Positions 3,316 through 39,163 of a stretch of 64,000 nt of DNA are shown here, piece after piece; the stretch's first letter is position 1; each line of letters starts with the position of its first letter. The stretch comes from an uncultured Poribacteria bacterium (lineage in GTDB: Bacteria; Poribacteria; WGA-4E; WGA-3G). The position numbers were made by a program, and so were the translations under genes. The DNA lies in the NCBI GenBank assembly GCA_951813565.1, contig OX638351.1, positions 3,968,001-4,032,000 on the forward strand, written 5' to 3'. The notes below the pieces were generated by a model. It saw only the letters and a program-made list of their open reading frames with translations. It was not told where the DNA came from and made no database searches.

Positions 3316-3344
3316 TTGACATTTCCCGAAATCTATGTTATAAT
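3316..3344 (+). promoter_or_regulatory. Consensus sigma70 promoter
   Basis: TTGACA-17 nt-TATAAT, with TG extended -10. Confidence 0.75.
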
Positions 3345-3598
3345 GCCTAACGTTAAGTCATATTTAATTTAGACGTGAAAAAGAGAAATCAAACGTCGCA
3401 ATCATGTTTTCTGATGATGGAGGTTTTATCAATGTGTAACCAATATTGAATAACCAAATTGTAAACACCACAATCCAGAAAGCGAAATCGTCTAAGCACT
3501 TGTCATCTATCCAAGTGCAATGCTTGTGGCATCATGTTAACTATCAGTTAATCCCCCCCCAGTTAAAATACGCTAATTTTTTCATATTACAAGGTCTT

Positions 3599-20990: not shown

Positions 20991-21983
20991 CTAAGCGCGA
21001 ACCAGAAAAGGTTTATATGCCGCGTCTTCACCCGTTATCACACGTGCCAAATGCCTAACCTGAAGTTCAATGGAACGAAGGTAAGTCGTTTTTTCATTGC
21101 GGGTTGGGTGCTGAAATGTTTGTTGCATCCGTCCATAATACCCTGTAAGGAATCGGTCTAATGCTTTCTTCGTAAAGCGAATGCCTTTGTTGGTCCGCTC
21201 AAAATCTGCTGGTTTTATGCGGTTATTATTAACGAGTGTAAGGACATAACCATCCACAATAATTTGGCGGAATTCCTCCATCAGATCCGAGGCTAATGCG
21301 GCATGCCCATGCTTGGGTTGGTGAAAATAACCACAGTAGGGATCGAATCCAACGACATTGATAAATGTGTATACGTGATTATGTAGAAGTGTATAACCGA
21401 GTGAAAGCATGGCGTTAATTGGGTCTGGCGGTGGACGAAATTGGCGGGTTGTAAAGCCCCAATCGTGTGCCAGAAATTGCCGGAATGCGCGATAATGCGC
21501 AGCAGCACCAACGCCTTCGTATCCAAGAAGTGATTCCAAATTATCAGCTCGTTCAAGCTTCTCTAAGGTCTGGCGTGCTGAATGAATTGCCGAATTTACA
21601 TCTGCATTTTTGGTGCGCTGCCGTTGAGCGAACCGGATAGCGTTCATGAGTTTACCACGGACGAAACATTTCGCTAATGCAAGGCACCGCAGCGGATTCT
21701 CAGCAACAGCGTACTGCTGCTTGCGAATAAGAGTATCTTTGGCATAAGGTGGTTGTAATTTGCCTTTGTATTTGCCCTGTGTAGAAAGGAAAGAGACCGG
21801 GATATTTTTATGGAGCAAGTATCCCATCGTTTGCGTTGTGATATGTCCGTTGCCGAAAATGACAACTTCGTCAAGTTGAGCAATTGGGATTTCCTGTAGA
21901 ATTTCTCGATCTTTTTTTACGACGATCTGGTTTCCAGATTTATGGAGAACTGCTCCTTGTTGGGTGATGTAGAGAATTGCCAT
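20991..21983 (-). CDS. cas1: CRISPR-associated endonuclease Cas1
   Basis: Motifs LYITQQGAVL, GYEG..AA.Y, R.FRPP.DPINAMLSLGY, G.DPY.G.FH, LASDLMEEFR; ATG at 21983 with AGGAGG RBS. Confidence 0.96.
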   Translation of the reverse strand: MAILYITQQGAVLHKSGNQIVVKKDREILQEIPIAQLDEVVIFGNGHITTQTMGYLLHKNIPVSFLSTQGKYKGKLQPPYAKDTLIRKQQYAVAENPLRCLALAKCFVRGKLMNAIRFAQRQRTKNADVNSAIHSARQTLEKLERADNLESLLGYEGVGAAAHYRAFRQFLAHDWGFTTRQFRPPPDPINAMLSLGYTLLHNHVYTFINVVGFDPYCGYFHQPKHGHAALASDLMEEFRQIIVDGYVLTLVNNNRIKPADFERTNKGIRFTKKALDRFLTGYYGRMQQTFQHPTRNEKTTYLRSIELQVRHLARVITGEDAAYKPFLVRA

Positions 21984-22279
21984 CTTGTCCCTCCTATGTG
22001 AGTTTATGGTTTTGCCCAGTTTATTTATAACGTGAGTTTGATAAATCCCGTAGGGAATCAACACCGAATGCGCCTACGGCATTCGGTAGGGTAGAACGGA
22101 AATGGGCAATAAAAAACAGCCTCTAAAGAGAGGTTGTTGACCCATTTGAGGTCTACATTTCTGAAAAAATAAGTGAAACCCAACTCTTTAGAACTCTCAA
22201 GACGGTTGAATTGTTGGGTTTCGCTTCGCTCTACCCAACGGACTATATTCAATTTAATTATCAAACTCACGTTAATTAT

Positions 22280-22649
22280 ACTATAGTTTGGACAATTTAC
22301 ATATTGTTCGAGGACTTGCTGAGAAACTGTTAGGTGTCCAAAGCAAAATATTGGACACCTGTCGCCCCGCTGGGGCTTTAGACAGCGGCAATTACCTTCT
22401 TCTATATACCTGTCGCCCCGCTGGGGCTAAGGTGTCATCTTATATTATTTATATTTTCTGCGATTTTGCTGGCTGAAAGAACTCGTCCAAAAATACCTTT
22501 TGGGCAGCCCCAGCGGGGCGACAGGTGTATAGAAACGCGGTAAACAACCCGCTTCAGCCCCAGCGGGGCGACAGGTGTCCAATATGAAAACTATATGTTT
22601 TTCTCTAACCCAACCTCACGAAAACAGCTAAAATTGTCCAAAGTATAGT
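22280..22649. repeat. MITE/REPIN-like element with terminal inverted repeats and four internal REP units
   Basis: TIR ACTATAGTTTGGACAATTT / AAATTGTCCAAAGTATAGT; ACCTGTCGCCCCGCTGGGGCT twice forward and twice inverted. Confidence 0.75.
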
Positions 22650-22663
22650 AATTATAGGTTTTA

Positions 22664-24061
22664 CTATAATCCGTTATTTTGTTTTTTTAGTCGGTTACCG
22701 AGTTGTGCGGCGATGTTCTTTCCGCGTTGGGTTACGTGTTGTCCGGAACGTGTGACATGAACTACCCCCTGCTTCAACGTATGTTGCACTCTGTTTTGCA
22801 GAGTTTTTGTTCGGGGTGAGGGGAGCGGTTGATAACAACCATCTTTGTCAAAAACGTGTCCAAGAAATTCAATTCCGTTGTCAAAGTGTGCGATTTTCGT
22901 CTTTTTAGGGTTCAGTTGTAGATTAAGTGTTGCAAGCCGTTTTTGCGCACAATTCAGTGCTTGTCGCGCGCGCCCTTCACTTCGGCACAGCATCAGCGAG
23001 TCATCTGCGTATCGTACCATCCGTATACCAGCCCGTGTCACTGCTTTGTCAAATGCATGCAAGTAAAGGTTCGCTAACAGTGGCGAGAGTGGTGAACCTT
23101 GGATAATTCCGATTTTGCGAGGTTGGTTCAGTCGTTCTTTCACAATACCTACGACAGTAGGTGCAGCGAACGCTGCTAAAGCGAGAGGGGCAATCACAAT
23201 TAAGTTTTTAGTGGCAAGCAGCGATCCTATCCTTTTTGAGTTGGCAAGTAATAGGAGTAGTCCGTCACGACCTAAGTTAACAAGGAATTGATTAAAAGTA
23301 TATTCGCGGAGTTGACTCTGTTGGATACCAAATTCGGTGTCGTGGTCCAACCAATCGTCTGTCATTGAGGCATCACTAATCTGCCGATAGGTGTCGAGAT
23401 GGGATGAACGCTGCAGCAGCTGGTTAATCACTTGTTCAATTCCTTGTCCGATGGAGGAAGCCGTATTTTCAATGTGAGCTACCCATCTGGTGCATTTCGG
23501 AGGCTCCACAATCCCGCCCATATCAAGCCACATCTGAATGAGTCTAAGGATAGGTGTTTCTTTAATTGTAGCTCGGAGAAAACGCATCAGAATACGGTTA
23601 TCCATCGTGCCAAAGAAATTCTGGATATCCGCATCAACCACCCATTCGTACCCCTCGGCGCGGATAGCGTTTACCTGAGCAACTGCTTGTGGTACGCCTC
23701 GATTTGGACGATAACCGAAACTACAATCCAAGAATTTTGCCTCGTAAATCGGCGTGATGAGATCACAAACAGCACGTTGAACGATGCGATCTTTGAGTGC
23801 CAAAACAGAGATTTCGCGTGCGCTGCCGTTCGCTTTTTTCATCGTGAACTTTTGAACTGGCAGCGGATAGTAGCGTTCCTCGGCAAGTTCACGTGCAAGT
23901 TGCCGGAGATGCTTCACAAGGTTCACTTCAAACTGTTGGATGGTAATACCATCACTACCAGGACCGCCTTTATTCGCGCGGACTTTTCGCCACGCTGCTG
24001 CTAACGTTTCAGTTTGACATAGCTGCGTTGTGAGAGACGTTGTAGGGACATAGTTAAACAA
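22664..24061 (-). CDS. CRISPR-associated group II intron-type reverse transcriptase (stand-alone)
   Basis: Motifs AWRKVRANKG.PG.DG, DRIVQ, SFGYRP, DADI..FF, QGSPLSPLLANLYL, RYADD; lies between the array leader and cas1; no intron flanks recognised. Confidence 0.92.
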   Translation of the reverse strand: MFNYVPTTSLTTQLCQTETLAAAWRKVRANKGGPGSDGITIQQFEVNLVKHLRQLARELAEERYYPLPVQKFTMKKANGSAREISVLALKDRIVQRAVCDLITPIYEAKFLDCSFGYRPNRGVPQAVAQVNAIRAEGYEWVVDADIQNFFGTMDNRILMRFLRATIKETPILRLIQMWLDMGGIVEPPKCTRWVAHIENTASSIGQGIEQVINQLLQRSSHLDTYRQISDASMTDDWLDHDTEFGIQQSQLREYTFNQFLVNLGRDGLLLLLANSKRIGSLLATKNLIVIAPLALAAFAAPTVVGIVKERLNQPRKIGIIQGSPLSPLLANLYLHAFDKAVTRAGIRMVRYADDSLMLCRSEGRARQALNCAQKRLATLNLQLNPKKTKIAHFDNGIEFLGHVFDKDGCYQPLPSPRTKTLQNRVQHTLKQGVVHVTRSGQHVTQRGKNIAAQLGNRLKKQNNGL

Positions 24062-24476: not shown

Positions 24477-27400
24477 GTTCGGAAAGCCTTTCCCGTTTGA
24501 AGGGAATTGAAACGCGGGCTTTAGCCGCCTTGACTAGGTTGTCATTGGGTTCGGAAAGCCTTTCCCGTTTGAAGGGAATTGAAACCAACCTTACCAAACC
24601 CGATTCTTAGGATTTGGCCTTCGTTCGGAAAGCCTTTCCCGTTTGAAGGGAATTGAAACTCATTGGTGGTTGTGACACCAAAGCCAACCTTCAACACGTT
24701 CGGAAAGCCTTTCCCGTTTGAAGGGAATTGAAACACAAACTCTTTTTTTTGGCTCTTACTCCTCCTCCCCGGTTCGGAAAGCCTTTCCCGTTTGAAGGGA
24801 ATTGAAACTACCCATACAGCCTAGAGTCGAAATCTGGAATAGGGCCGAGTTCGGAAAGCCTTTCCCGTTTGAAGGGAATTGAAACTGACTTACAGTCACG
24901 ATGTACGAATTTTCCTTGGGGAAAGTTCGGAAAGCCTTTCCCGTTTGAAGGGAATTGAAACCTCTTTTAATGCCTAAATGACTACAGCCATTCTTCTACC
25001 GTTCGGAAAGCCTTTCCCGTTTGAAGGGAATTGAAACACCTTAATGCACTTGACTTCGAAATTTTCTGCCCATGTTCGGAAAGCCTTTCCCGTTTGAAGG
25101 GAATTGAAACCTCTGGCTCTGGCTCAATCGGTGCATCATCTACCGTTCGGAAAGCCTTTCCCGTTTGAAGGGAATTGAAACTCATAGACCCCGATTGCTG
25201 GGAACAAGTGAGCGATCGCGTGTTCGGAAAGCCTTTCCCGTTTGAAGGGAATTGAAACAAATTTTGTCAGTGGTGGCCTTTTCGTCTCTCAAAAAAGTTC
25301 GGAAAGCCTTTCCCGTTTGAAGGGAATTGAAACTATCTGGAGCTCAATGCTCCGTAAGTCGTTTCCGGGTTCAGTTCGGAAAGCCTTTCCCGTTTGAAGG
25401 GAATTGAAACTCCTTTGATGTTCGGTGTTTGAAAAAACAATCTCCGTTCGGAAAGCCTTTCCCGTTTGAAGGGAATTGAAACATATACTCTTTTGAGCCA
25501 AGCCCTTCGTTTGGATTGTATAGTTCGGAAAGCCTTTCCCGTTTGAAGGGAATTGAAACCTTTCCTCTGTATCTTGTAATAACTCATTTCTGCGTTCGGA
25601 AAGCCTTTCCCGTTTGAAGGGAATTGAAACTTCGCGATACTGTCCGCTAAATCCAACATCACAATCAGTTCGGAAAGCCTTTCCCGTTTGAAGGGAATTG
25701 AAACATGATATTGAATTTCACTTCGGTCAATTTGCGACGAGTTCGGAAAGCCTTTCCCGTTTGAAGGGAATTGAAACGAAACCAGTTACGGAGCCATGCT
25801 ACCCCTAAAACTTGTTCGGAAAGCCTTTCCCGTTTGAAGGGAATTGAAACCCATTCTGCGGTCTCTACAATTTTAAATTTTATTTCGTTCGGAAAGCCTT
25901 TCCCGTTTGAAGGGAATTGAAACGCTTGCATACCCGGCGGTACCAAAGTTGTTGAATTGCGTTCGGAAAGCCTTTCCCGTTTGAAGGGAATTGAAACGGT
26001 TCACCGACAATAGCTATGGTGGTGCCATCAAACAGTTCGGAAAGCCTTTCCCGTTTGAAGGGAATTGAAACATGGTGGTGCCATCAAACAATTCTGCTGA
26101 GGCAGCTACGTTCGGAAAGCCTTTCCCGTTTGAAGGGAATTGAAACCAACGACCCTTACCGCTTTCACGGTGCCGTCTTTTTGTTCGGAAAGCCTTTCCC
26201 GTTTGAAGGGAATTGAAACATCACGACTGTAGTTCGATATTGCGTCGTCTACGTTCGTTCGGAAAGCCTTTCCCGTTTGAAGGGAATTGAAACGAGAAGA
26301 AACTATGGAAACGACTATTAGAGAAACGGTTCGGAAAGCCTTTCCCGTTTGAAGGGAATTGAAACGCAAATCATAATGAACACTATCATCAGGCCGGCAC
26401 ACAAAGTTCGGAAAGCCTTTCCCGTTTGAAGGGAATTGAAACACCTCCGTGATTTCGTGACCGACGATTACTCCATTTTTAGTTCGGAAAGCCTTTCCCG
26501 TTTGAAGGGAATTGAAACCTATAGTAACTGGTAAGGAGGCTGAGCCATTCAGCAGAAGTTCGGAAAGCCTTTCCCGTTTGAAGGGAATTGAAACTTTTCT
26601 CAGCCGTCTTTCCCAGCGCCGCTTGTTGTACGTTCGGAAAGCCTTTCCCGTTTGAAGGGAATTGAAACCGTTAAGATCAAGAGCGTAATTGTCGTTCTAA
26701 GTTTCAAGTTCGGAAAGCCTTTCCCGTTTGAAGGGAATTGAAACACTATTAAGTATCGGGGTGGGTGTGCGATTGTCTTAACTGTTCGGAAAGCCTTTCC
26801 CGTTTGAAGGGAATTGAAACACGATGGCGTCGTTAGAAGTGACTTCGTCCCCAAAACGTTCGGAAAGCCTTTCCCGTTTGAAGGGAATTGAAACTATTTG
26901 CCGACAGCTTTGCTAATACCTTCTTAGCTGACCTCGTTCGGAAAGCCTTTCCCGTTTGAAGGGAATTGAAACATTTCGTTAAGCACAGCCAAAATCAGTT
27001 CTCCTTTGGTTCGGAAAGCCTTTCCCGTTTGAAGGGAATTGAAACACACTACCATCCTAGAGCTGCCAGAGGTGTTCTCTGACTGGTTCGGAAAGCCTTT
27101 CCCGTTTGAAGGGAATTGAAACAAGAAACAATAAATTCGTATGCTGTCTTTCCCAGGCGTCGTTCGGAAAGCCTTTCCCGTTTGAAGGGAATTGAAACAA
27201 GCGTAAGTATCCATCTCTTCTCCTTATTATGTGCGTTCGGAAAGCCTTTCCCGTTTGAAGGGAATTGAAACACTTTTTCTGTCTTACCAACATTATATTT
27301 TCCTCCTGAGTTCGGAAAGCCTTTCCCGTTTGAAGGGAATTGAAACAAATCATTCTTGACACGATCACTAAGAGAGTTCTCGTTCGGAAAGCCTTTCCCG

Positions 27401-28457
27401 TTTGAAGGGAATTGAAACAATGACTGCAAGATAAGAGCAAATAACGCATTAACTCGTTCGGAAAGCCTTTCCCGTTTGAAGGGAATTGAAACGGGTTTTA
27501 TTAAACAATCACACCAACTATAGAAATCGTTCGGAAAGCCTTTCCCGTTTGAAGGGAATTGAAACCTACTCTTCATACTGGCCCAAGCCCAACACCGCTA
27601 GGATTGGTTCGGAAAGCCTTTCCCGTTTGAAGGGAATTGAAACGAATCAAAGAACCCGTCTCGGAACTCCGTCATTGGCGTTCGGAAAGCCTTTCCCGTT
27701 TGAAGGGAATTGAAACACGATAAATCGTATCGGGGTGGGTGTGTTGCGATTGTTCGGAAAGCCTTTCCCGTTTGAAGGGAATTGAAACAAAATCCAGAGC
27801 CGCAAAAAAAATGATAGTTGCCATGTTCGGAAAGCCTTTCCCGTTTGAAGGGAATTGAAACATTTGTAGTGACAACCTTCCCAAAACCAATCTTCAACAG
27901 TTCGGAAAGCCTTTCCCGTTTGAAGGGAATTGAAACAGAAACAAAAAAGAAGTCAGTAAAGTTGGATAAACAATGTTCGGAAAGCCTTTCCCGTTTGAAG
28001 GGAATTGAAACAGAAAATTCCCGGTGGCTACGGTTGCCTCTGCCCCAACGTGTTCGGAAAGCCTTTCCCGTTTGAAGGGAATTGAAACTCATGCGGCGGT
28101 CATACCGCCCGCACCGCCACCTTTGATCGTTCGGAAAGCCTTTCCCGTTTGAAGGGAATTGAAACAGCCATGTTTTCAGTGGCTAGCGAGGACAGAGTTT
28201 CGTTCGGAAAGCCTTTCCCGTTTGAAGGGAATTGAAACATGTGGCGGCCTTCACCATGACGTCATTTGTAGTGGTTCGGAAAGCCTTTCCCGTTTGAAGG
28301 GAATTGAAACCTACGACCATAGCGGTTGAACAACGCCATAATAAGTTCGGAAAGCCTTTCCCGTTTGAAGGGAATAGAAACTTGTAATCTCATCATCAAC
28401 ATATCTGTTTCAGTGACTTTGTTCGGAAAGCCTTTCCCGTTTGAAGGGAATTGATAA
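24477..28457 (+). CRISPR. CRISPR array of 54 repeats (37 nt, GTTCGGAAAGCCTTTCCCGTTTGAAGGGAATTGAAAC) and 53 spacers of ~34-41 nt
   Basis: Counted directly; the last two repeats are degenerate (..AATAGAAAC, ..AATTGATAA); the ATTGAAAC 3' handle and leader position give plus-strand orientation. Confidence 0.99.
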
Positions 28458-28504: not shown

Positions 28505-29455
28505 ATGAAAATTGTTCTTGCTGGTCCCCCTCAATCTGGTAAAAGTTGCTTACGTGAGGGATTGAAGCAGGCTATTCTTGGACTCCAGCGTAACAATTCG
28601 GATATACCATATCCTTATGTAATCACAGCGTGTCCGGATGGTGAAGGAGCATGGTTTCAAGAAACCACGAAAAAATATCCCGAGGTTGCTAAAGCCTGCA
28701 AGGAAGCCTATAAAGGCAAATTCACGCCAAAATTTGTTAAGCTTGTTGCTAAGCATGTACGTAAATGTAAGCAAACCTTGACTATGGTGGACATCGGTGG
28801 ACTTATTAGTAAGGAAAATAAAAAGATATGCAAAGGAGCAACGCATATCGTAATTCTGGCTGGCAACGATTCGGAAAGCGGCGAATGTTGGGATGTCCGG
28901 ATAGCGGAATGGAGAGGATTCGCGAAAGCGTTGGATTTGACTGTGGTGGCAGAGATATTTTCTGATTACCACAGCAAAGCAGATGTTGTTGAAAACGTTG
29001 GCTCGGATAACATCCTCCGCGGAAGTGTTCATTATCTTAAAAGAGGAGTAGACATTGTGGATCGTCCAATGGTTCAGGCATTGGCTCGGCATATTCTTAC
29101 TATAGCGGGGTATCCGCTTACGGGCGAACCTTCTGCGGAATCATCGACCTACATCATTACCCGTGATAAAAACGGTATTTTGCGGGTTGGCTTCGGCACA
29201 CCAGGTGATAACACTCAAATTGTGAAGGATGCCGCTGTGCGTTTGGACGCTATGGAAGAAGCAGGCGAGTTAAGCGGTGGTGATTTACTCAAAATCAATG
29301 GTCCCGCATCATTGCCGGTCGCTATGTTCCTGGGGCATAGGTTGTCTGACCTGTTTGAGGTGATTGCATGCTTTGATCCGAGGATGGATCAGTACGTCAT
29401 CGCAATCAGTCGTAGTTCCGACTCTAAATATGCTGTTGGAAATGTAATTGATTAG
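28505..29455 (+). CDS. csx3: P-loop NTPase fused to a Csx3/Crn3-family ring nuclease domain
   Basis: N-terminal GPPQSGKS Walker A, ACPDGEG.W and VDIGG; C-terminal LRVGFG..N.QIVKDA, KINGPASLPVA..LGH, FDPR..YVIAIS. Confidence 0.82.
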   Translation: MKIVLAGPPQSGKSCLREGLKQAILGLQRNNSDIPYPYVITACPDGEGAWFQETTKKYPEVAKACKEAYKGKFTPKFVKLVAKHVRKCKQTLTMVDIGGLISKENKKICKGATHIVILAGNDSESGECWDVRIAEWRGFAKALDLTVVAEIFSDYHSKADVVENVGSDNILRGSVHYLKRGVDIVDRPMVQALARHILTIAGYPLTGEPSAESSTYIITRDKNGILRVGFGTPGDNTQIVKDAAVRLDAMEEAGELSGGDLLKINGPASLPVAMFLGHRLSDLFEVIACFDPRMDQYVIAISRSSDSKYAVGNVID

Positions 29456-29736: not shown

Positions 29737-30012
29737 TTAAACGACAATTGTCTTAGGTTCCGACGTTACATCCCCGACAGCAGGCACTTCAATGCGTCCG
29801 GCGCAAGCATTACAAAGCGCGTAGTACCGCACTGAATCTTCTGAAGAATCGATAATATCCGCAACAGCATGTTTTAATTCCTCATACTGTTTTCGGTTCA
29901 GATGTGCTTCAAACACGCTGTATTGGACACGAGTACCGAATCCTTTAAGTGCTTTCGCAAGTTGACTCCGCCTTCGGTCATCCGGAATATCGTAAGAGAT
30001 AAGATAGAACAT
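29737..30012 (-). CDS. cas2: CRISPR-associated endoribonuclease Cas2
   Basis: Motifs YLISYDIPDDRRR, G.RVQYSVFE, DSVRYY.LC..C. Confidence 0.96.
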   Translation of the reverse strand: MFYLISYDIPDDRRRSQLAKALKGFGTRVQYSVFEAHLNRKQYEELKHAVADIIDSSEDSVRYYALCNACAGRIEVPAVGDVTSEPKTIVV

Positions 30013-30061
30013 CAAATTTCCCTCCATTGATTATGGCTGAATTAATCAGTTCCCACCATTT

Positions 30062-30450: not shown

Positions 30451-31413
30451 TTAATTTGGTATAATGCGATACTGTCCGTGTCCGAATGCTGTGTGATGCC
30501 CGATGTGTAAATACTCGCCAAGATAGATGAACGGCAGGAACGGTGTCAACTCACCCGTAAAGCGAACCTTCCCGATAAACCCATCCATCGGAATAGAACT
30601 CTCTGCACGATAAGAGTAACGGTTGGACTTGAGCCAGCGGAAACGGGATTCGTGTGTAATAGCACGTGCAGCATCAATCAATGCATGTGCGTCCACATCT
30701 AAATCCTCTCTACAATGAAAATAACTCAAAAAACGGATACGTCTGAGAAGGTTGCGGATAAGATGTTCAAATGTTAACGCGCTTGTCCATCGACCATCAA
30801 CCTTTATACTGGTCGGTGTGAGAAATTCGAGTTCAATTGCATCGCGGTTCTGAGGTGTGCCTTCCAATACATCTGCCAACCCAAGAATAATGCCATCATC
30901 AGCGAGCATCTCAGTTTCTGCGGTGTAAATCGTCTGGCTGTTAGGGCTGCCATGCACTGAGAGGCTTTCGATCTTGTCAAGAAGACACTGCCCGCGCTTG
31001 TCTCGTATACCGATGCGCCGTTTACCTATCTCACGGAAGGTAAACGCTATCCACGGCAACAGGTTGATCGCCTCTCCAATGAGTGTCATACTGCAGACGA
31101 AGGTGTCGTCTGGTGCAAAGTCTGTTTTCTCGGTGTGCGGCGGTTGTAGGATGAACGGATGCGGCGCATAGGGCTGTCCGCGTAGGATGGGACTGTCGGG
31201 TGGAACTGGTGTTTCAAAGCATTTGGAATAGATACACCGATTTGGATGTTGACACTTTTGTTCACACGTTTGCGTTTCTCCGATGCATGCGATGTGGCGG
31301 AGCAGGTATCCGAATCGACTGCGGAAGATGTTGCCTTTGTAGCGTGACATCTTCAGTGGTTCTTGGGCGGTATAGGTGAAGCGGTAGCGGGCAAAGCGGA
31401 AGTTTTTGAGCAT
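30451..31413 (-). CDS. cas6: CRISPR pre-crRNA processing endoribonuclease Cas6
   Basis: Motifs PHPF, FLTPT, and C-terminal G-rich loop GEYLHIGHHTAFGHGQY. Confidence 0.92.
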   Translation of the reverse strand: MLKNFRFARYRFTYTAQEPLKMSRYKGNIFRSRFGYLLRHIACIGETQTCEQKCQHPNRCIYSKCFETPVPPDSPILRGQPYAPHPFILQPPHTEKTDFAPDDTFVCSMTLIGEAINLLPWIAFTFREIGKRRIGIRDKRGQCLLDKIESLSVHGSPNSQTIYTAETEMLADDGIILGLADVLEGTPQNRDAIELEFLTPTSIKVDGRWTSALTFEHLIRNLLRRIRFLSYFHCREDLDVDAHALIDAARAITHESRFRWLKSNRYSYRAESSIPMDGFIGKVRFTGELTPFLPFIYLGEYLHIGHHTAFGHGQYRIIPN

Positions 31414-32864
31414 TATGGAAGTGGCGCGATGAATTGATGTTGTTTGTTAAAGTCGTCAGCATCAATACATGCAATCTTTTGTGCCTTCTTGAATTGTTCT
31501 TCAACAGTTGTTTTAAAGGCTTTGAATTCTTTGCTACTGATCATACGCATACCATGTGCGTAGATACTTTGATTCCTCGTTCCCACTTGATTTTGAAACT
31601 TTCCCCAGTCCAAGCCTTGAACAATTTTATCGTCGAGAGCGTGTAATAAAAGGTATCCGTCAACCAATCCAATGGAGGCAGGAAGAGCAGATCTATCTGT
31701 GCGTTGGAAAACTTCCTTCAATTTAGCCGCATACAGATTGAAAATTTCACCCTCATCAATATTAGAATAATTCGGTTTACGAGTATCAATATTGTACCCT
31801 GCAAGACGGTGTTGTTCGATCCACTCAAGAAGCCGATAGAGAATCAGGCAGGCGGTGTTGAGTTTTCCTTGTGCTTCTCGACGGAGTGCATTGTGATAGA
31901 GCATAAACGCAAAGTGAAACCCATTAGGAGCATTGAGTGCCAGTTTTTCATTTTTGAGAAACATCAGTAAAGCTTCCAGTGCTTTTATGTGTTTTTCAAT
32001 GCAAACTTTACAATCTCGGAGTGGATTTAATCCATCTAACATATTATATTGATCAAGAATCTTTACCAACCGTTCTAAGAAAGTTTTTGCTTTGCCAACA
32101 TCAAGATTATCCCAAGCCTCGTATGCTGTGCATAGGTATTCATAAGCCTCGTAGGTTTTGGCTTTGTTGGCATCTCCTACTAATGATTTCAGTAGCTGAA
32201 ATATTCGCAGTGCCCCTGCGTAATCATGCCTTTCGTATAGGTCTCTTGCTTTCTCAACCTCTAAATCACCAAATACGGTATAAGGATTATCCAAAAGATT
32301 TAGATACTCACTACACGGTTCAGGTTTTCCATGCGTAAATTTGGTATTATCAACGTAAAATATAGCAGCACCGAGTACTGCACCCGCCATTGCTGCACCA
32401 CCAACCATTGACTTTTTCCCGCCTGTGATATCCACAGCAATATTCGTAGGACGTTTCCACTTTTCATAGAGTTCCATGATTGCTTTGTAAACATCCACAG
32501 CACTACTTCCGTCAATTTCGAGTGTATCAAGTTGGTCAAGCGTTAATTTTGTTTCATCTTGGATTCGTGGCAGTAATCTTTCTGTTTCCTTCGTGTAAAG
32601 CAAACCAACCCGTTCCGGTTTTATGGCGAGGATAGAAAGAATCAACGGTTCAGGGGAATATCCAAGGGGTAAGATGAGTCCTTCGTATTCCTTGTCTTGG
32701 CTATTATCTGGGTTATCGACAAATGCTTTTTTGACAAACGGGAAAATGTGTTCATCATAGAAAACAGATGCTGCTGCTTTCTCTTCGTGACTGTTATAGT
32801 CCATTTTCTTCCATTCCTCAACGAGTGCATCAAATTCTTCTTGAGTAAATATCTCTTTTGGCAT
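31413..32864 (-). CDS. CARF-HEPN cOA-activated ribonuclease effector (Csm6/Csx1-like, TIGR02710-type)
   Basis: LG.SPEP and VDITGGKKSM (CARF); YRLLEW..Q.RL; RNQSIYAHG (HEPN R-x-H). Confidence 0.85.
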   Translation of the reverse strand: MPKEIFTQEEFDALVEEWKKMDYNSHEEKAAASVFYDEHIFPFVKKAFVDNPDNSQDKEYEGLILPLGYSPEPLILSILAIKPERVGLLYTKETERLLPRIQDETKLTLDQLDTLEIDGSSAVDVYKAIMELYEKWKRPTNIAVDITGGKKSMVGGAAMAGAVLGAAIFYVDNTKFTHGKPEPCSEYLNLLDNPYTVFGDLEVEKARDLYERHDYAGALRIFQLLKSLVGDANKAKTYEAYEYLCTAYEAWDNLDVGKAKTFLERLVKILDQYNMLDGLNPLRDCKVCIEKHIKALEALLMFLKNEKLALNAPNGFHFAFMLYHNALRREAQGKLNTACLILYRLLEWIEQHRLAGYNIDTRKPNYSNIDEGEIFNLYAAKLKEVFQRTDRSALPASIGLVDGYLLLHALDDKIVQGLDWGKFQNQVGTRNQSIYAHGMRMISSKEFKAFKTTVEEQFKKAQKIACIDADDFNKQHQFIAPLP

Positions 32865-32889
32865 GTTATTTTCTCCTTTTTTACAGGTA

Positions 32890-33519
32890 TTATGCAGGAA
32901 CCACCTCTTTAATATTGCCATTGTCATCCACCGAAGTCACCTTTACATTTACTTCATCACCGACATTTTTTAGAAAATATCCAGTTTTAAAAACGATTTC
33001 TTGTTTATCGTCAGTTTGTAATTCCACGGTCACCTTACCGACCTGTTTTTTCAATACCTTTGCCTTGAGTTTAGTGCCTTGAATATACTTCGGTTTGGGT
33101 TTTTCTTCTGGCAGTGGAAGGGGTATAAACTTCGGTTTCTCTTCCAGTGGTTCTTGTTTCTGTTCTTGCGGACGTTGCTCCTCAGTTGCGCGTTTGGGTT
33201 CAACACGATAGTAACGCATCAACCGCAGACTCCAACCCAGTATAAGTAAAAGTTCAGTTGTGTCTTCTATGTCATGGAGATGTTCTTCAAAGCTTTCTTG
33301 TATGTTCCGATAGAATCGCTGTGTCTGATGGCTTCGGATTAGTGCGTTACGGGTGCTTGACAAGCGTTGAACCAACGATGTCAATCTATCTTTTATATCA
33401 CTCTCTGCCTTGTTCTGCCGCACAAAAGCAATGACTTTCCCCAACTCATTCGGGTCAGTGCCTCTGTCAACTAATTCAAAAGCAATGTCATGAGCACTAG
33501 ACCACTGTTTTTCTTCCAT
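32890..33519 (-). CDS. Uncharacterised CRISPR-associated protein (helical N-domain, Pro/Glu/Lys linker, S1/OB-like C-terminus)
   Basis: Within the cas operon; GGAGG RBS. Confidence 0.6.
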   Translation of the reverse strand: MEEKQWSSAHDIAFELVDRGTDPNELGKVIAFVRQNKAESDIKDRLTSLVQRLSSTRNALIRSHQTQRFYRNIQESFEEHLHDIEDTTELLLILGWSLRLMRYYRVEPKRATEEQRPQEQKQEPLEEKPKFIPLPLPEEKPKPKYIQGTKLKAKVLKKQVGKVTVELQTDDKQEIVFKTGYFLKNVGDEVNVKVTSVDDNGNIKEVVPA

Positions 33520-33531
33520 TAGATGCCTCCG

Positions 33532-34521
33532 TTAGTATAACCCAGTAGGGCAGTTGCGGTCATTTGGATACTTGAGGATCTGTGCAAGTTGGGACAATAA
33601 TTCCTGCTGGATGAGTCTACCAGTTTCGGCATCGTTCACACACGTCTGCATCCACGTTTCCAATTCTTCATTTGTCCTTGAAGTATCTTGAGGAACATCC
33701 CAATTCAAGTAGCGGGAACCAGTATGTTGTTGAACTTGTATCTCATCAATCTGGAAATCAATTGACCCGAAACAGACAGGTTTCGCTCCACCGATTTTGA
33801 GTTTAAACGAATGTTCTGGATGATGTCCTAACGCTGTAAAGAGTAGTCCCCACTCGGACTGTTTAAGGTTGTCCACTTGCATAACGAAGCGGAATTGTGT
33901 TTCTTTTTCACACGCTTCAACGGGTGTGCTGCCAGTAGCCACTTCACCGTGCATGTAAAACTTACGTCCCGGTACCTCCCGCATACTTCTTTGTCCTCGT
34001 CCTGGCGCATAGAGTTCAGGGACATGTTTTGTAACGATGTCTCCTTCTATTCTGGGAGCATCTTGTATAGAAATGTTTCCTTGAAACCCCATTGCACCAA
34101 ACATTCTGCAGGCTACGCACAAGTTTTCTTTCTGTCGACATTCAGAAAACCATCTCGGCATTGCGCGACGGACTTGGGTCGAAACTTTACTGAGACAGCT
34201 TTCAGAGATTGCTTCAACAACACTTCGGATTGCTCCTTTGAGTGAACTTCCGGGAATTACGATGTTGCCGCCAGTTTTCACTGCTGTTTTAATGAGTTCT
34301 ACATCATCACCGATGTCTATAATGCCACTGCCGATATATATTGGCGTGAGTGCTTTAATAGTGCCGTGAATCCTACCTGTTGTGCGGTTATGTTGGTAAC
34401 GGTCATGTCTGGTAGGTCTATCTCTCTTGACACTACTCGGTAACTGTACAAAAGCAAAAGGTTTTGGTGCTGCTTGTTCTTCTTGTCTGCCGCCAGAGCC
34501 ACCGCGTTGGTATTGTCCCAT
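33532..34521 (-). CDS. cas7: Cas7-group RAMP subunit
   Basis: PKPF.FV, LTPIYIGSG, IPGSSLKGAIRS..EAIS.SC, GRKFY.H, IGGAKP..FG. Confidence 0.88.
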   Translation of the reverse strand: MGQYQRGGSGGRQEEQAAPKPFAFVQLPSSVKRDRPTRHDRYQHNRTTGRIHGTIKALTPIYIGSGIIDIGDDVELIKTAVKTGGNIVIPGSSLKGAIRSVVEAISESCLSKVSTQVRRAMPRWFSECRQKENLCVACRMFGAMGFQGNISIQDAPRIEGDIVTKHVPELYAPGRGQRSMREVPGRKFYMHGEVATGSTPVEACEKETQFRFVMQVDNLKQSEWGLLFTALGHHPEHSFKLKIGGAKPVCFGSIDFQIDEIQVQQHTGSRYLNWDVPQDTSRTNEELETWMQTCVNDAETGRLIQQELLSQLAQILKYPNDRNCPTGLY

Positions 34522-34525
34522 AATT

Positions 34526-35020
34526 TTAGTCTCCTGATTTCTGCACAAATTTGGTGTATCGTGTGAAATGGATAGTCTGAGACTTACGTTCTTTGTATTG
34601 GATTACCTTGACACATGGATATTTACACCAATCCATTGGATAATCAAGTTTTCGGGGTATACGTGTGTCTCGCCACGGTTTTGTTTCACCACCACCGAGT
34701 AGATATATGTTTTGGGGATGAGTTGTCTCCCATTTGCCTTGTTCAGTAAAACCTTCCGGTAAGGTGTCTTCAGATAACCAAAGCAAAGTGTAACCGGTGT
34801 TGGTCTTTTGCCATCGGAGTTCGGCTTGACTCCCAAATAACCTGCCGCGTGAGAACTTCTCAATCTTGGCAGTGTCTGGTGTGCCTTTTTTCCAATTGGT
34901 GATTTTATTGGGTCTTTGAAGTAAGTAGTATTTAGTCTCACCAAATTGTAGACATTTTAATAGGTCATTGAGTGCTGACACATCAGTCACCTGTCTTGTA
35001 GCGACGATTGCTTTTCCCAT
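34526..35020 (-). CDS. csx19: Csx19-family type III-D subunit
   Basis: GRLF...AELRW motif, C-terminal FTRY; typical III-D position. Confidence 0.7.
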   Translation of the reverse strand: MGKAIVATRQVTDVSALNDLLKCLQFGETKYYLLQRPNKITNWKKGTPDTAKIEKFSRGRLFGSQAELRWQKTNTGYTLLWLSEDTLPEGFTEQGKWETTHPQNIYLLGGGETKPWRDTRIPRKLDYPMDWCKYPCVKVIQYKERKSQTIHFTRYTKFVQKSGD

Positions 35021-35021
35021 G

Positions 35022-35951
35022 TTACTGATCCTCTTCAAAGATGTTTCGCCATGAATTGACACATCCACGCCATAATGCTGAGATGTCACCCTCGTCTTCA
35101 AATGTCAACGTTGCACCGAGCCCGTAGGCATCTGGTTGTGCTTCGACTCCCTCCACTTCAACGGTATCGGACTCTGGAAATCCATAGGCATCTGCATCGT
35201 TGACAAGTTTTCCAGCACCTGCAACGACGTTCTTGTTGAATGGATCAACAGGATTTCCCAGCATACGCACCTGTTCGTTTCCTACAATGGCGGTTGGGTA
35301 GTGGATTTCAACTTTATTGACTTTCATGTTCACCTGTCCTAAACCGCGCGATTTTGCGAAACCGATGCCGATACGTTGTTCGTCAAAATCACGGATTGCC
35401 AGTGCGATGAGTGCGAGTTGTGAAGTTGTGAAGTTTTTTAAGTTTATTGTCGTCGTGAATGTTCCGGCAGTCAACACCTGAAAGTTGAATAAAGCACCGG
35501 GGACAGCAGAACCAAAGATGCGATCAATTGCGACGCCGTTTCGCTCCTCTAACTTTATTTCTGATGGGTCAACAGGATAGGCATCAGTAATATTTGCCCG
35601 TGCGGAGATGTTTGTGCTACCGAAGATTTGACATATCGTGCATGTCCTTCTGTAGAGAGTAGCACTGTTTTCCTCCTCCAGATTTCTACATGGTGAGTTT
35701 CGCTTTACAGGATCACATGCTGAAACATTTCCACCAAGAGTCCGGACAATTCGTTCACAATGTGCGCGTATTGCACCTTTCAGAGAGGAACCGGGTAGAT
35801 AAACGCTTCTATCGCCACCATAGTACGTCTCCACGAACTCCATGTCAGGCTTTGTTGGGTCTGCCCCTTGGTCGCTTGCTTTGATAAGCAGGGGTCCGAC
35901 AGGAGAGATTGTTATTTTGATTTTCGCTTGATTAACCATCCGTTTGTGCAT
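35022..35951 (-). CDS. cas7: Cas7-group RAMP (Csm3-like)
   Basis: YLPGSSLKGAIRAH.ERI, C..C.IFG, RNGVAIDR..G, G.AKSRGLG. Confidence 0.9.
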   Translation of the reverse strand: MHKRMVNQAKIKITISPVGPLLIKASDQGADPTKPDMEFVETYYGGDRSVYLPGSSLKGAIRAHCERIVRTLGGNVSACDPVKRNSPCRNLEEENSATLYRRTCTICQIFGSTNISARANITDAYPVDPSEIKLEERNGVAIDRIFGSAVPGALFNFQVLTAGTFTTTINLKNFTTSQLALIALAIRDFDEQRIGIGFAKSRGLGQVNMKVNKVEIHYPTAIVGNEQVRMLGNPVDPFNKNVVAGAGKLVNDADAYGFPESDTVEVEGVEAQPDAYGLGATLTFEDEGDISALWRGCVNSWRNIFEEDQ

Positions 35952-36762
35952 CTGTTCCCTCCAATTGCTTATCTATTCTGTCTTTAAATGCCTCTATCCA
36001 CGATTCCCAGTTTGCATCGTCGCCTTTATCGTCTTTGGTAAGATAATCCATAATTTTTGTCTTGTCAATGTAGTGTGCGGAGTCCAGCGTTAGTGTGATA
36101 ACACCGAGTCCACGACTACTTGCGCCGCCGATAGTCAAATCGCCTTTCTCAAAAGCAGATAATCCCAAGTATAGCATACCGAGTTGCCAATCGGTTGCGT
36201 TGTCAACGATTGCATGGAAATCGAATGGTGTGCCTGCGGGAACAACCTCAAAATCGTAGAGGTGACCACTGACGGCGGTTTCAGTATCACGGTCAATTGC
36301 GACACCGTCCCTTTGTTGATACTGACCAAACCATAGGTCTTCTTGCACGTATAGGTCGCGGACCTGAAGCTTTGAGGCATACCATAAGGAACCGAAGAGT
36401 TTGCACACCCAGCATGTTTTGCTAAGCAGTTTCGCATTATACTTTTGTTCGTTCCAATTGTTATCGTCACGATCATCCTGGAGTTTTTTCATCTCATCTC
36501 TTGTGATACACTGTTCATCATTGTTCGTCGGGTTGCAGACGACTTTTTTATTCTTAGCGAAACTTCGGAGGATGCTTTCTACATAAGACCTTAACACTCC
36601 TTTGAAGCTTGAGCCGGGGATATAGGGAGCACCTTCAGCATCTCGCACAACAGGCAGGTCTGAACCGATAACCGCAGTTGAACGTCCCGCACCGACACGG
36701 ATTGCTGTCTGTGTTTCTACCGTGCCTTTCAGATTGAGTCGGGATTGGAATTTGTGAAACAT
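35932..36762 (-). CDS. cas7: Cas7-group RAMP (Csm3/Csx7-like)
   Basis: PYIPGSSFKGVLRS..E, C.VC.LFGS, RDGVAIDRDT, GG.SSRGLG. Confidence 0.92.
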   Translation of the reverse strand: MFHKFQSRLNLKGTVETQTAIRVGAGRSTAVIGSDLPVVRDAEGAPYIPGSSFKGVLRSYVESILRSFAKNKKVVCNPTNNDEQCITRDEMKKLQDDRDDNNWNEQKYNAKLLSKTCWVCKLFGSLWYASKLQVRDLYVQEDLWFGQYQQRDGVAIDRDTETAVSGHLYDFEVVPAGTPFDFHAIVDNATDWQLGMLYLGLSAFEKGDLTIGGASSRGLGVITLTLDSAHYIDKTKIMDYLTKDDKGDDANWESWIEAFKDRIDKQLEGTDAQTDG

Positions 36763-37226
36763 TAGTTGTTACCCCCTTCTTTCGCCAAATAGACCTGATA
36801 GCGAGCAAGGTTACCTAAGTAAAGCTGCATGAGTCTGAGATGGACTTTCTGAATCTGATCTTTGTTCGGTGGATTATTTGAATCAATAGATTTGACGATA
36901 TTCTCAGCATCAGTGGATAATTCCTCAATCTTTTCTACTAATGCGGTAGCGAAAGTTGTATCTCCATCAGCAGTATCTTGCCACATCCGATTTGCACCTC
37001 TCCGACCGAGTTGATAACGGATGTAGTTTTTGGTGACTTCAATGCCACTTCCTGGGTCTGTTGCGACGTTCAGCACATTGCGGAATGGCGAACGTTCATT
37101 GCTGAGATTATAACTATCCGCTAATTCTTGCATCTTTGGAATGATTTCTTCCATCTGTAAACTGATTGCGCGTTCTATTTTTAGATTGGTTTGTCTTTCA
37201 TCGGTGTTTTTATCTGTTTGGTTCAT
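36762..37226 (-). CDS. cas11: Type III small subunit (Cas11/Csm2-like)
   Basis: Helical 154-aa protein with NYIRYQLGR and W motif, between csx10 and cas7. Confidence 0.7.
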   Translation of the reverse strand: MNQTDKNTDERQTNLKIERAISLQMEEIIPKMQELADSYNLSNERSPFRNVLNVATDPGSGIEVTKNYIRYQLGRRGANRMWQDTADGDTTFATALVEKIEELSTDAENIVKSIDSNNPPNKDQIQKVHLRLMQLYLGNLARYQVYLAKEGGNN

Positions 37227-39163
37227 TCTGTGTTCTCCTTATTGTTGTTCAGTGTGTCTCGTGTGTGAAGGTGAAATGGGTCGCAGATTGTTATCTGTCC
37301 GAATCCTTCTTCACGTCGGTTGCCGATGCCTGTGTTTTCAAGGTTTTGTAATGCGGGTAGCCATGCGTCAATATTCGTTGTGTGAAATACAAAGACACTG
37401 CCGATATTGGTTATGAGTTCCGTTTCTTTAGGCAATCCCCATGCAGCGTTCCAACCGCCTGCATATCCATAACTGGCGAAACTACGGACGCATGCTACTT
37501 CAGTATTACAGGCTACTTCAGTATTACAGGCAGCTATGTCCTGCAACATCCTCTCGGTGAGAACCATACTCCGTTGCCATCCATTTTCTGCTGTTAGAAT
37601 GGCTTCTGATTGTAAGTTGACGGTAAAGTAGCTGCCATCACATTCACCAATACTGGTATTTGATAGACACTTATATGCCTGCCATACTTCTGATAATGCT
37701 TCGTTGAAGTTTTTAATCCGTTCGCTGAGGGGTTCAGAGGACGATTTTTTTCCCACTGCGATGCTGACGTGTCCAAGTCCACGTGAACTTCCGCCACCCA
37801 ATCGCATTACCTTATGCTCTAAGGTCTGTGCGACTTTATCTACGAGTCCGGGTGGCACTCGGACGGAACCGTGTAAAACCACCGGTTTGCTTTCTTTCTC
37901 ATTCTGTGACTCTGCTTTTCCATCTTTCACGATGACAGGATCAATCGCAGTTAGATGATACAGTAGACCTTCCTCAGCGACTTTTCGCTGCCTGTTGATT
38001 GCCACGCGCGTGAGGAGTCGGGTGTTGAGGTGTCTCTCTTTGTGAGAACCGGTTGCATCTTCATAGAATCCACTATGTGATTCCACTCGTCCGCAACACT
38101 CGGGACAATTCGGTTGATACATCCAATCTGCTTTTTCAGAGACGATTCTCTCCATAAGTGTGTCAAAAACACCGTGCTTCCCATCGGCAATAAATCCTGG
38201 TGTATCCTTACAACTTATGGCGGTTGCTGGCAAGACATTTGCGGCGGGTGTGCAGTTTCGGAAGATAGCGGCATCATTCTCAATGAAAATTGTTTTGAAA
38301 TCTGCATCTGGTGTGCTATTCTCTAATTCTGCCAATAGTTCATTTGCAACAGCACCGCGTATCAAGCCACCGCGGATGTAATTGAGTGCTTCTACGGCTT
38401 GTCCGGAAGGTTTGCGTCCCCCCGTGATAATTGGAGATTGTAGTGTAACCTGCAGCGATAGTTCTGTGAAATCATCATTGGTATTTAGCGATTCAGTTTC
38501 AGGCGATTGTGTTTTGGTTTCAGATGGTTGCGGTTCGTGTGTGATGGTTATCCATCCGAGTCCGCGGGTTTTACCTGAGCCGATGGCATGGACGTATTTC
38601 AGTCCTGCAGTGAGGAATTCAATCTGTTTGCCTGTGATGTTGTTGCTCAGTAAGACATCTCCAGAGAATTTAAAGCCTGCGTTTGGGATGCTTGTTTCTG
38701 TGAAATAGAGACGTTGATCTTCTGCGACTCTGCGATTGCGATTGATGGTTACACCGCTCCGGATTGCTGTTGTTTCTATCTCCAAATTTGTATCATGTAT
38801 GAGATCACTGATAAATATTTTTGATTCCGATTTAGGTGAACCGAAAATCTGACAAATGATGCAGTGGTTATCCTGCATTGCTTTAGTATTTTCGTTTACA
38901 AGTTCTTTCTTTGGACGCGGACACATATTCTCGGCTCGCGGACTGTTGCAAACAAAGTGTTTCTTCTCACCTCTGGCAATTGCTTCGCATGCGTGTCGCC
39001 AGATACCTTTAAGTGTTGAAGCAGGGATATAAAGTTTGCCGTCGGTGGTTTTAACGGTTGCCTTATCAGTACCTGTATCGCTGGAGCCGCTATCACCGAT
39101 ACAGAGTGCGGAATCAATTGTGGCTGTGATTTTCCAATGTTTGTTAGTTGTTTGTTTAATCAA
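37223..39163 (-). CDS. csx10: Cas7-Csx10 (Cas5-group) RAMP fusion
   Basis: N-terminal Cas7 (IPASTLKG, C.IC.IFGSP, IGSGKTRGLG), then Csx10 (YIRGGLIRGA, RLGGGSSRGLG, GIGNRREEGFG); start approximate (TTG). Confidence 0.85.
   Translation of the reverse strand: MIKQTTNKHWKITATIDSALCIGDSGSSDTGTDKATVKTTDGKLYIPASTLKGIWRHACEAIARGEKKHFVCNSPRAENMCPRPKKELVNENTKAMQDNHCIICQIFGSPKSESKIFISDLIHDTNLEIETTAIRSGVTINRNRRVAEDQRLYFTETSIPNAGFKFSGDVLLSNNITGKQIEFLTAGLKYVHAIGSGKTRGLGWITITHEPQPSETKTQSPETESLNTNDDFTELSLQVTLQSPIITGGRKPSGQAVEALNYIRGGLIRGAVANELLAELENSTPDADFKTIFIENDAAIFRNCTPAANVLPATAISCKDTPGFIADGKHGVFDTLMERIVSEKADWMYQPNCPECCGRVESHSGFYEDATGSHKERHLNTRLLTRVAINRQRKVAEEGLLYHLTAIDPVIVKDGKAESQNEKESKPVVLHGSVRVPPGLVDKVAQTLEHKVMRLGGGSSRGLGHVSIAVGKKSSSEPLSERIKNFNEALSEVWQAYKCLSNTSIGECDGSYFTVNLQSEAILTAENGWQRSMVLTERMLQDIAACNTEVACNTEVACVRSFASYGYAGGWNAAWGLPKETELITNIGSVFVFHTTNIDAWLPALQNLENTGIGNRREEGFGQITICDPFHLHTRDTLNNNKENTE

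Follow-up and report, generated by a model that had tools for sequence, protein, structure and literature searches.

The 64,000-nucleotide (nt) stretch of DNA analysed here, called the window, comprises positions 3,968,001 to 4,032,000 of the forward strand of contig OX638351.1 (assembly GCA_951813565.1), from an uncultured Poribacteria bacterium. It contains a type III-D CRISPR locus linked to a reverse transcriptase (RT), with an array of 54 repeats (37 nt) and 53 spacers that is the sole array of its repeat family in the 5.43-Mb genome. Ten of the spacers, about a fifth, were antisense to a stand-alone csx3, a gene of the Crn3/Csx3 ring nuclease family, and all ten had this orientation. The features of the locus are listed in Table 1.

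Table 1. Features of the type III-D locus, the csx3 spacers and the viral csx3 regions. Positions are those of the window unless a contig is named.
Feature	Position	Strand	Remarks
cas1	20991..22064	-	
RT, CRISPR-associated, group II-like	22664..24061	-	YADD present; gene separate from cas1
CRISPR array	24477..28457	+	leader at left, degenerate final repeat at right
S1	24514..24548	+	antisense to csx3; 29/35 nt to L058; 4/6 mismatches at third codon positions
S2	24586..24622	+	antisense to csx3; L058 and the 785-nt X8 contig each matched at 33/37 nt; L058 mismatches 4/4 third-position
S3	24660..24697	+	antisense to another csx3 variant; top match 26/38; carrier not assignable
S6	24886..24924	+	antisense to C-terminal half of csx3; L058 matched at 27/39, two large-genome genes of sponge-symbiont type at 28/39
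S10	25182..25221	+	antisense to csx3; top match 29/40, Patescibacteria contig L084
S15	25560..25593	+	antisense to a csx3 variant: 5 nt of its leader, its start codon and first codons
S28	26519..26557	+	antisense to conserved central csx3 motif; 25/39 to L058, 10/14 mismatches third-position; carrier not assignable
S32	26821..26857	+	antisense to csx3; low profile score; L058 matched in register at 24/37, a tie with viral L001
S46	27862..27899	+	antisense to csx3; 31/38 to L058, 5/7 mismatches third-position
S51	28239..28273	+	antisense to csx3; 27/35 to L058
AAA/P-loop-Csx3 fusion, host	28505..29455	+	groups with Poribacteria genes; two of three conserved histidines missing
cas2	29737..30027	-	
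cas6	30451..31413	-	
CARF-HEPN effector (TIGR02710, Csx1/Csm6 type)	31413..32927	-	only cyclic oligoadenylate effector seen in the locus
type III-D complex: csx21, cas7-type RAMPs, csx19, csm2-type small subunit, cas7-csx10 fusion	32890..39217	-	
cas10	39156..41690	-	GGDD intact; HD motif absent
viral csx3 regions	L001:5974-7169, L002:5998-6300, L003:5839-6261, L004:5998-6291, L005:4224-6261		IMG/VR

The locus belongs to the RT-associated type III-D group, as csx10, csx19, cas7-type genes and a Cas10 with GGDD were all present. RT and cas1 both matched one RT-Cas1 PADLOC model, each over one half of it. From the sides on which the leader and the degenerate last repeat lie, the CRISPR RNA (crRNA) was inferred to be the plus strand of the array. 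Cas10 had been described in the original prediction as lacking an HD domain, and no HD motif was found at its expected position, with GGDD kept. Ring nucleases accompany almost only effectors activated by cyclic tetra-adenylate (cA4), and cA4 is therefore likely to be the signal of the host locus (PMC12409355). The host Csx3 domain (29141-29455) clustered with Poribacteria sequences (support 100/98), a placement that points to the lineage of the host. It lacks two of the three histidines present in all six further Poribacteria copies, and so does P0001, the homologue closest to it. Judging from these residues, the host domain may be inactive or repurposed.

Nine of the ten csx3 spacers, all except S15, had been named in the original prediction. 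Re-read from the array, their coordinates and reverse-strand translations were as described there, all nine were antisense to Csx3/Crn3 coding sequence, and the profile matches were antisense and colinear. The tenth, S15, covers the start codon; it spans leader and start codon and therefore points to a stand-alone csx3 gene. It had also been said that the host csx3 was not matched, and the ten spacers indeed shared no more than 15-22 of their 34-40 nt with the csx3 region of the host. Overlaps between spacers indicated at least four csx3 source variants, which were sampled along the array from its oldest end to its newest. S46 and S51 overlap by 10 identical nt and are thus attributed to one source variant, and S3 differed in length at the same place. 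Where Asp is conserved, S6 has Phe; this change falls within the final bases of the spacer and may reflect either a variant or addition of an end during uptake. Self-targeting was rejected, as neither a protospacer for any spacer nor a second csx3 was found in the genome.

The similarity to Csx3 was scored with two profiles. With the first, built from the 120 best listed homologues of the host Csx3 domain and run against 3,180 shuffles, the nine highest-scoring spacers were all antisense and five scored above the shuffle maximum. The second, broader profile was built from 129 short Csx3 homologues, with 2,120 shuffles and 424 real spacers from the same genus as controls. Nine of the 53 spacers reached 13.6 or more (S28, S3, S6, S2, S10, S1, S15, S46 and S51), again antisense and colinear; the 99.9th percentile of the shuffles was 14.4 and their maximum 15.4, and no same-genus spacer reached 13.6 (0/424, maximum 13.0). 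The difference between 9/53 and 0/424 had a Fisher p of 1.4e-9 at a threshold of 13.6 that was chosen post hoc. The enrichment over shuffled spacers, on which the original prediction depended, is real and strong, and it held against real control spacers as well. Only S32, one of the nine spacers first named, did not stand out by profile (p 0.12-0.17); it was retained for its in-register match to L058 (24/37) and for its agreement with the overlapping S46 (19/26) and S51 (16/21). Other candidates were dropped: S31/S44 as the Csx3 C-terminus (S31 had p 0.004 with the first profile, but was weaker with the second and off register on L058) and, likewise, S38, S21 and S22. When the spacers were compared with 26,210 host protein windows, the host Csx3 domain came first narrowly (6.5 vs 5.9), having been outside the top 8 by a first statistic, and the stand-alone Csx3 proteins P0042 and P0095 scored 16-17 in that test. 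A single host Csx3 sequence is a weak yardstick for the spacer targets.

To find targets, the contigs of four public runs were compared with S2-repeat-S3. In run X8, a sponge metagenome, a 785-nt contig covered the whole of S2 with 4 mismatches and ran on into non-repeat sequence; an exact copy of the host repeat was found in the same run. A 21-nt motif from the flank of this contig had three metagenome matches, one of which was the contig L058 (3,750 nt); the other two (L056, L057) were judged to be chance matches. The X8 contig and L058 are not independent, as they possibly come from the same population. L058 encodes a 104-residue stand-alone Csx3, P0270. S1, S2, S6, S28, S32, S46 and S51 matched its gene antisense and in register, with mismatches falling mostly on third codon positions, and S15 aligned across the start codon (20/34); the best identity of any of the 424 control spacers was 0.64. 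Among 89 csx3 loci and the host gene, L058 was the best match for S1, S2, S46 and S51 by 5-7 nt (77-89% identity, and at most 70% to all other csx3 loci), and a second contig, L084, was best for S10. The prediction of foreign csx3 targets is supported; these are stand-alone genes outside cas loci, and several sequence variants are involved. GC content at third codon positions (GC3) was 0.54 in the ten spacers and 0.55 in the L058 csx3, compared with 0.39 in the host.

Targeting was confined to csx3. No spacer matched the remaining L058 sequence at 70% or more, none was found against TrmB, AAA or the other genes of L058 and L084, and none matched host-type cas genes other than csx3. When spacer translations were compared with 22 loci of the type found in the candidate phyla radiation (CPR, Patescibacteria) and five viral loci, csx3 alone was hit, barring one isolated Trp-rich match of S11. 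In type III systems, protospacer flanks complementary to the repeat end mark a target as self. The flanks of the L058 targets are not complementary to the repeat end, and the targets would thus count as non-self.

P0270 matched Pfam PF09620 (Cas_csx3) with 31 bits against a cut-off of 21, the sole domain assigned. Its structural model (predicted local distance difference test score 91.8) had only Archaeoglobus fulgidus Csx3 (AfCsx3) among its top Foldseek matches and aligned with that protein over 89 residues (Z 11.8, root-mean-square deviation 1.7 Å). Against the viral SAVED structure 9R8S the Z score was 4.1, P0270 belonged to neither DUF1874 nor SAVED, and a viral structure library held no significant match to the model. 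Crn3 cleaves cA4 as stacked dimers in a Mn-dependent reaction. The characterised Crn3 requires His57, His60, Asp69, Arg71 and His80 (PMC7371418). The counterparts in P0270, invariant in the alignment, are His66, His70, Asp79, Lys81 and His91; the register of His70 is ambiguous, since it lies nine before the Asp like His60, yet HMMER pairs His61. The set His/His/Asp/Lys-or-Arg/His was present in 22/22 CPR-type, 4/5 viral and 54/56 other loci, counts that are to be read with search patterns that favoured loci with Asp-Pro-Lys. On family profile and fold, P0270 is a putative ring nuclease of the Crn3/Csx3 family, with predicted cleavage of cA4.

The surroundings of the L058 csx3 resembled a cassette of CPR genomes. 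L058 also encodes an AAA partner, not fused to csx3, together with a TrmB regulator, and no cas gene, array or phage gene was found on it. The only named relative among 22 of its TrmB was from a Minisyncoccia bacterium (64%). L058 was 72-78% identical at the nucleotide level to L084, from a 0.6-Mb metagenome-assembled genome labelled Saccharibacteria, over TrmB, AAA, the promoter/leader and the csx3 end with a hammerhead ribozyme. In a GTDB scan, 13 of the best 80 of 166 csx3 relatives were labelled as Patescibacteria-group; together with five other genomes of 0.7-1.0 Mb (four labelled "bacterium", one Gammaproteobacteria) they formed a set of 18 small genomes, extended to 21 by three relatives of the L084 genome, all of them incomplete. 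Genes for repeat-associated mysterious proteins (RAMPs) were found in 0/18 of these incomplete genomes vs 4/4 larger ones; in the 21, neither a SMODS cyclase nor a Cas10 palm over the cut-off was found, with two weak palm matches below it. A CBASS (cyclic-oligonucleotide-based anti-phage signalling system) of the carriers' own was unsupported as the reason for their csx3, given the SMODS count. The AAA partner was near csx3 in 16/19 loci, and the module often occurred with TrmB, an HD protein or MoxR-vWA. On long CPR contigs it lay among housekeeping genes: rpsB-tsf-mreB (L123), murC-ftsQ-dnaX-dnaB, ruvB and mraZ-mraW. The non-csx3 DNA of L058 had no match in 151 Poribacteria-side genomes. In trees P0270 fell with small-genome loci (98/97; 99 without the other long branch).

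Several further features were seen in these cassettes. L084 carries a second csx3 copy (3109-3456), 3' of its AAA gene, in which codon use is ordinary and the conserved histidines are missing. Its AAA protein and an unrelated 331-residue protein (starts 1774 and 3472) have identical first six residues, and the AAA protein of L058 (2981) begins similarly; from its sequence this start is possibly a shared targeting leader, although a scan of the remaining CPR-type loci did not show it. L131, labelled Gammaproteobacteria and about 1.0 Mb, bears the TrmB/csx3/AAA cassette and may be mislabelled or another reduced symbiont. In L103, L122, L133 and L135 a MoxR AAA with a vWA-type partner, in some with an HD protein, lies 3' of the csx3 module.

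The csx3 transcript of L058 was predicted to be highly structured. The unit consists of two sigma-70-type promoters (each 11/12 to the consensus), a long hairpin leader, csx3, a type III hammerhead and a terminator, with the csx3 promoter divergent from TrmB; its 646 nt had a predicted fold z of -14.6. Compared with synonymous-codon shuffles, the coding sequence of CPR-type csx3 had a mean z of -4.5 (n=22; 17 below -2), that of 20 loci drawn at random from 62 others -0.5 (2 below -2) and that of the viral copies -1.9 (n=5; one -6.2); TrmB and AAA of L058 were unstructured. In CPR-type loci the GC3 of csx3 was 0.27 above that of the genes beside it; in the other loci the difference was 0.01. 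The L058 hammerhead matched the whole of RF00008 with 40.7 bits (E 1.2e-6), below the gathering cut-off of 48.5. A hammerhead was present within 400 nt 3' of csx3 in 9/22 CPR-type and 0/5 viral loci, and a loose pattern also matched 5/62 other loci, none with the conserved stem. In the ten copies from the nine loci the core was invariant and 10/16 pairs were compensatory, the stem II pairs never varying. L084 (5850-7715) and L134 (11092-15103) have several hammerheads per cassette transcript, with single genes between two ribozymes. Two such hammerhead-flanked genes in L084 have a GC3 of 0.90 and 0.81, whereas the regulator, the AAA gene and neighbouring genes lie at 0.26-0.35. An origin of the other 43 spacers from folded RNAs was unsupported (p 0.73).

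Lacking an HD nuclease, a type III-D system is confined to RNA targets inside the cell that carries it. We consider it probable that the csx3 transcript of a CPR parasite reaches the cytoplasm of the Poribacteria host, where the RT-linked III-D system repeatedly records it. The host system would sense only foreign RNA in its own cytoplasm and answer by cyclic oligoadenylate to the CARF-HEPN RNase. Its spacers would have been taken from stand-alone csx3 mRNA of at least four variants, and those that can be placed would point to csx3 in a CPR cassette with TrmB, promoter, hairpin leader, folded frame, hammerhead and terminator. A CPR cell would parasitise the host, its csx3 RNA would enter the host cytoplasm, and Csx3 would there cleave the cA4 alarm. 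Folding and the ribozyme-made end may shield the RNA from crRNA pairing and host RNase, and the divergence at third positions may represent escape. Since the carriers are without detectable type III or CBASS cyclase, the enzyme most likely serves against host cA4, and the csx3 target would then act like a ring-nuclease anti-CRISPR. That ten spacers fall on one 0.3-kb gene and none on its neighbours implies that this transcript dominates uptake or that only such spacers protect; either would place csx3 RNA in the host cytoplasm. It might get there by delivery, by leakage or through transfer of DNA. Strand bias does not separate uptake from selection, because RT-Cas1 uptake is itself antisense-biased (PMC6821258). 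That at least four variants were sampled, along an array read from its oldest part to its newest, suggests a standing interaction. The target contig and the exact host repeat co-occurred in run X8. A further-reaching version, which we put forward tentatively, is that Patescibacteria deliver folded, ribozyme-trimmed mRNAs as effectors; csx3 would be translated by the host and silence its type III immunity, and RT-Cas1 would log such RNAs, so that arrays name CPR hosts.

A number of observations weigh against transfer from a CPR parasite. L058 is an unbinned contig of 3.75 kb and was not matched in full by any spacer (best 89%), and no exact protospacer was found in a binned genome, in searches of 5 and of 401 genomes. 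In these same genomes the other 43 spacers had no convincing match to a CPR gene, with matches at chance level only, many of them from the A-rich S47. For S3, S6, S15 and S28, large-genome csx3 (65-72%) was at least as good a match as the CPR-type copies, and for S32 the viral copy in L001 tied with L058. On 100 columns, placing P0270 with the viral copies (p 0.33) or with those of Poribacteria (p 0.47) was not rejected by approximately unbiased (AU) tests, and the assignment of the carrier therefore rests on synteny and not on the tree. The csx3 gene was present in just 4/251 genomes around that of L084, and on L084 a serine integrase and a terminase fragment lie beside the cassette; this patchiness and these neighbours suggest that the cassette is mobile. 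Codon adaptation of csx3 to the host was unsupported by GC3 (0.55 vs 0.39). Arg71 of the characterised enzyme is Lys in P0270, and the activator of the CARF-HEPN effector could be cA4 or cyclic hexa-adenylate (cA6). Clustered hammerheads are known to flank single genes, including the anti-restriction gene ardA, in prophage-type elements (PMC3088659). Finally, no further csx3 spacers were found in same-genus arrays (0/424 and 0/18 additional spacers), which covered only part of these arrays, for example about 100 of 223 in G007; five genus genomes queried with the L058 csx3 gave nothing significant.

The original prediction had named phages or other mobile genetic elements as the source of the targets. 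It is credible, though rather unlikely, that such an element of the host carries csx3 as an early, highly transcribed anti-CRISPR and that the CPR-like cassette is shared cargo. Stand-alone phage csx3 does exist: a scan of IMG/VR gave five csx3 contigs (74-155 kb) out of 42 pattern matches, with no RAMP gene on any of them and a terminase-like match on 3/5, over the cut-off on one. Two of the five carry an AcrIII-1-family gene; in L001 it lies directly downstream of csx3 and is followed by an HD protein, and the L005 record contains such a gene as well as a nearby SAVED protein. These viral copies are good candidates for anti-CRISPRs, possibly as stacked ring nucleases. The integrase and terminase fragment of L084, the hammerheads beside anti-defence genes in prophage-type elements and the viral placement left standing by the AU test agree with this explanation, which needs no new route of RNA transfer. 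However, the viral copies formed a group by themselves (97/89), had no hammerhead and, for S1, S2, S46 and S51, did not rank with the best matches. P0270, the 21-nt flank motif and an 18-nt piece of S46 had no match in IMG/VR, and a tblastn search with the host Csx3 domain found nothing in 50,697 GenBank phage records; matches on plasmids came from 13 records, all cyanobacterial. As the best contig is without a phage gene and has a CPR cassette that elsewhere sits among CPR housekeeping genes, phage does not stand as the likeliest source.

Entry of CPR DNA into the host, as an integrative element or from lysed cells, is improbable in our estimation. The DNA would be transcribed from its sigma-70 promoter and RT-Cas1 would log the top foreign transcript, with the enzyme shielding the element or idle in the host. 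The two near-consensus promoters before csx3 and the patchy, integrase-linked cassette fit this explanation, as does the antisense bias of RT-Cas1 uptake, by which strand alone is no proof of selection (PMC6821258); spacers from other prokaryotes are also common in nature (PMC12612501). The absence of non-csx3 cassette DNA from the 151 Poribacteria-side genomes and of spacers against other genes of L058 and L084 argues against it, as do the variants spread from the oldest to the newest end, which suggest a standing interaction. Uptake, as foreign nucleic acid, of cas-linked csx3 from other large-genome sponge symbionts (Poribacteria, Entotheonella, cyanobacteria) would agree with S6, S3, S28 and S15, but it leaves the close fit of S1, S2, S46 and S51 to L058 unexplained, and offers no reason why one 0.3-kb accessory gene should dominate, and other host-type cas genes are matched by no spacer; we regard it as very improbable. 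Chance resemblance has almost no probability left: the peptides are just 11-12 residues long and the host domain alone came first only narrowly, but shuffled and real spacers served as controls, and the 77-89% in-frame nucleotide matches to one 315-nt gene refute it.

The target protein has clear counterparts among known ring nucleases. P0270 shares the Pfam family and the fold of Crn3/Csx3 of A. fulgidus (PDB 6YUD; PMC7371418) and has apparent counterparts of its His57, His60, Asp69 and His80. An AAA partner is also near the target csx3, as in the AAA-linked Csx3 of Synechocystis (Slr7080; PMC9676260), where the cyanobacterial AAA-Csx3 is called putative. The target differs from known Crn3/Csx3 in lying outside a cas locus and in genomes with no detectable type III genes, in the change of Arg71 to Lys and in a base-paired, hammerhead-ended mRNA. 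Viral ring-nuclease anti-CRISPRs are AcrIII-1 (DUF1874/Crn2) and AcrIII-2 (SAVED) (PMC12751052; PMC13148439). A survey that covered 28,114 phage genomes named AcrIII-1, Csx20 and Csx16 only, with no Crn3 among them (PMC12409355). With AcrIII-1 and AcrIII-2 the target would share its logic, a small stand-alone enzyme against cA4 (PMC12751052). P0270 is a member of neither; its fold is different, and the best carrier is a cassette like those of parasitic bacteria and not a virus.

Spacers of a host that match an ultra-small symbiont lineage have been reported. Type I-B spacers of Ca. Altiarchaeum match a DPANN archaeon (Esser et al. 2023, as cited in PMC12612501), and type III-E spacers of Ca. 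Phosphoribacter, whose system also targets RNA, match two Saccharimonadia ORFs without known function (10.64898/2026.09.16.751625). Those targets are genome-wide or in two ORFs, whereas here ten spacers fall on one 0.3-kb gene with a predicted counter-defence role. Another patescibacterial paper deals with the parasite's own CRISPR (10.1101/2024.03.08.584096). The hammerheads of PMC3088659 are the same type III ribozyme, ending or separating single-gene units; here the ribozyme ends a TrmB-linked CPR cassette, with a ring-nuclease homologue that is hit by the array of another species. As in RT-Cas1 type III systems (PMC6821258; PMC5513706), an RT lies beside cas1 in III-D and the antisense spacers are compatible with RNA uptake, but RT and Cas1 are here separate genes and a source was found for about a fifth of the spacers; the source of the spacers of RT arrays is largely unknown (PMC5513706). 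We found no literature joining Csx3, ring nucleases or hammerhead ribozymes with Patescibacteria in a search that left out most subscription papers.

If the favoured transfer of csx3 RNA from a CPR parasite holds, an anti-CRISPR strategy known until now from viruses and plasmids alone would extend to a cellular parasite. The RNA of a parasite would meet the immune machinery of its host, a hint that parasites silence host immunity from inside. This would bear on how CPR bacteria handle host defences, on which hosts they have (here a Poribacteria lineage) and on the origin of RT-linked spacers. The hammerhead-ended, TrmB-linked cargo cassettes of CPR genomes would gain a testable job. Independently of this, the five viral contigs extend the candidates for ring-nuclease anti-CRISPRs to the Crn3 family.

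A weak outside hint of csx3 targeting came from a Methanoregula genome with a type III system. One antisense spacer (L102:13362-13393), found among 183 spacers of other arrays, scored 16.7, above all 2,120 shuffles; its csx3-like target would be foreign, as the spacer differed from that genome's own csx3 (23/32 nt). The repeat was not found in 200 relatives. Obligate parasitism on a methanogen is known for one isolate of Patescibacteria (PMC12281837). In the window, three other pairs of overlapping spacers were noticed. S21 and S22 (25998-26109) share 19 nt, S31 and S44 (26745-26783, 27717-27751) 17 nt, and S29 and S36 (26595-26631, 27123-27161) 11 nt, which suggests further targets that were sampled repeatedly. 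About 130 residues are inserted in the RT between the two blocks over which it matched, and the 600-nt gap between RT and cas1 (22064-22664) contains palindromic repeated elements.

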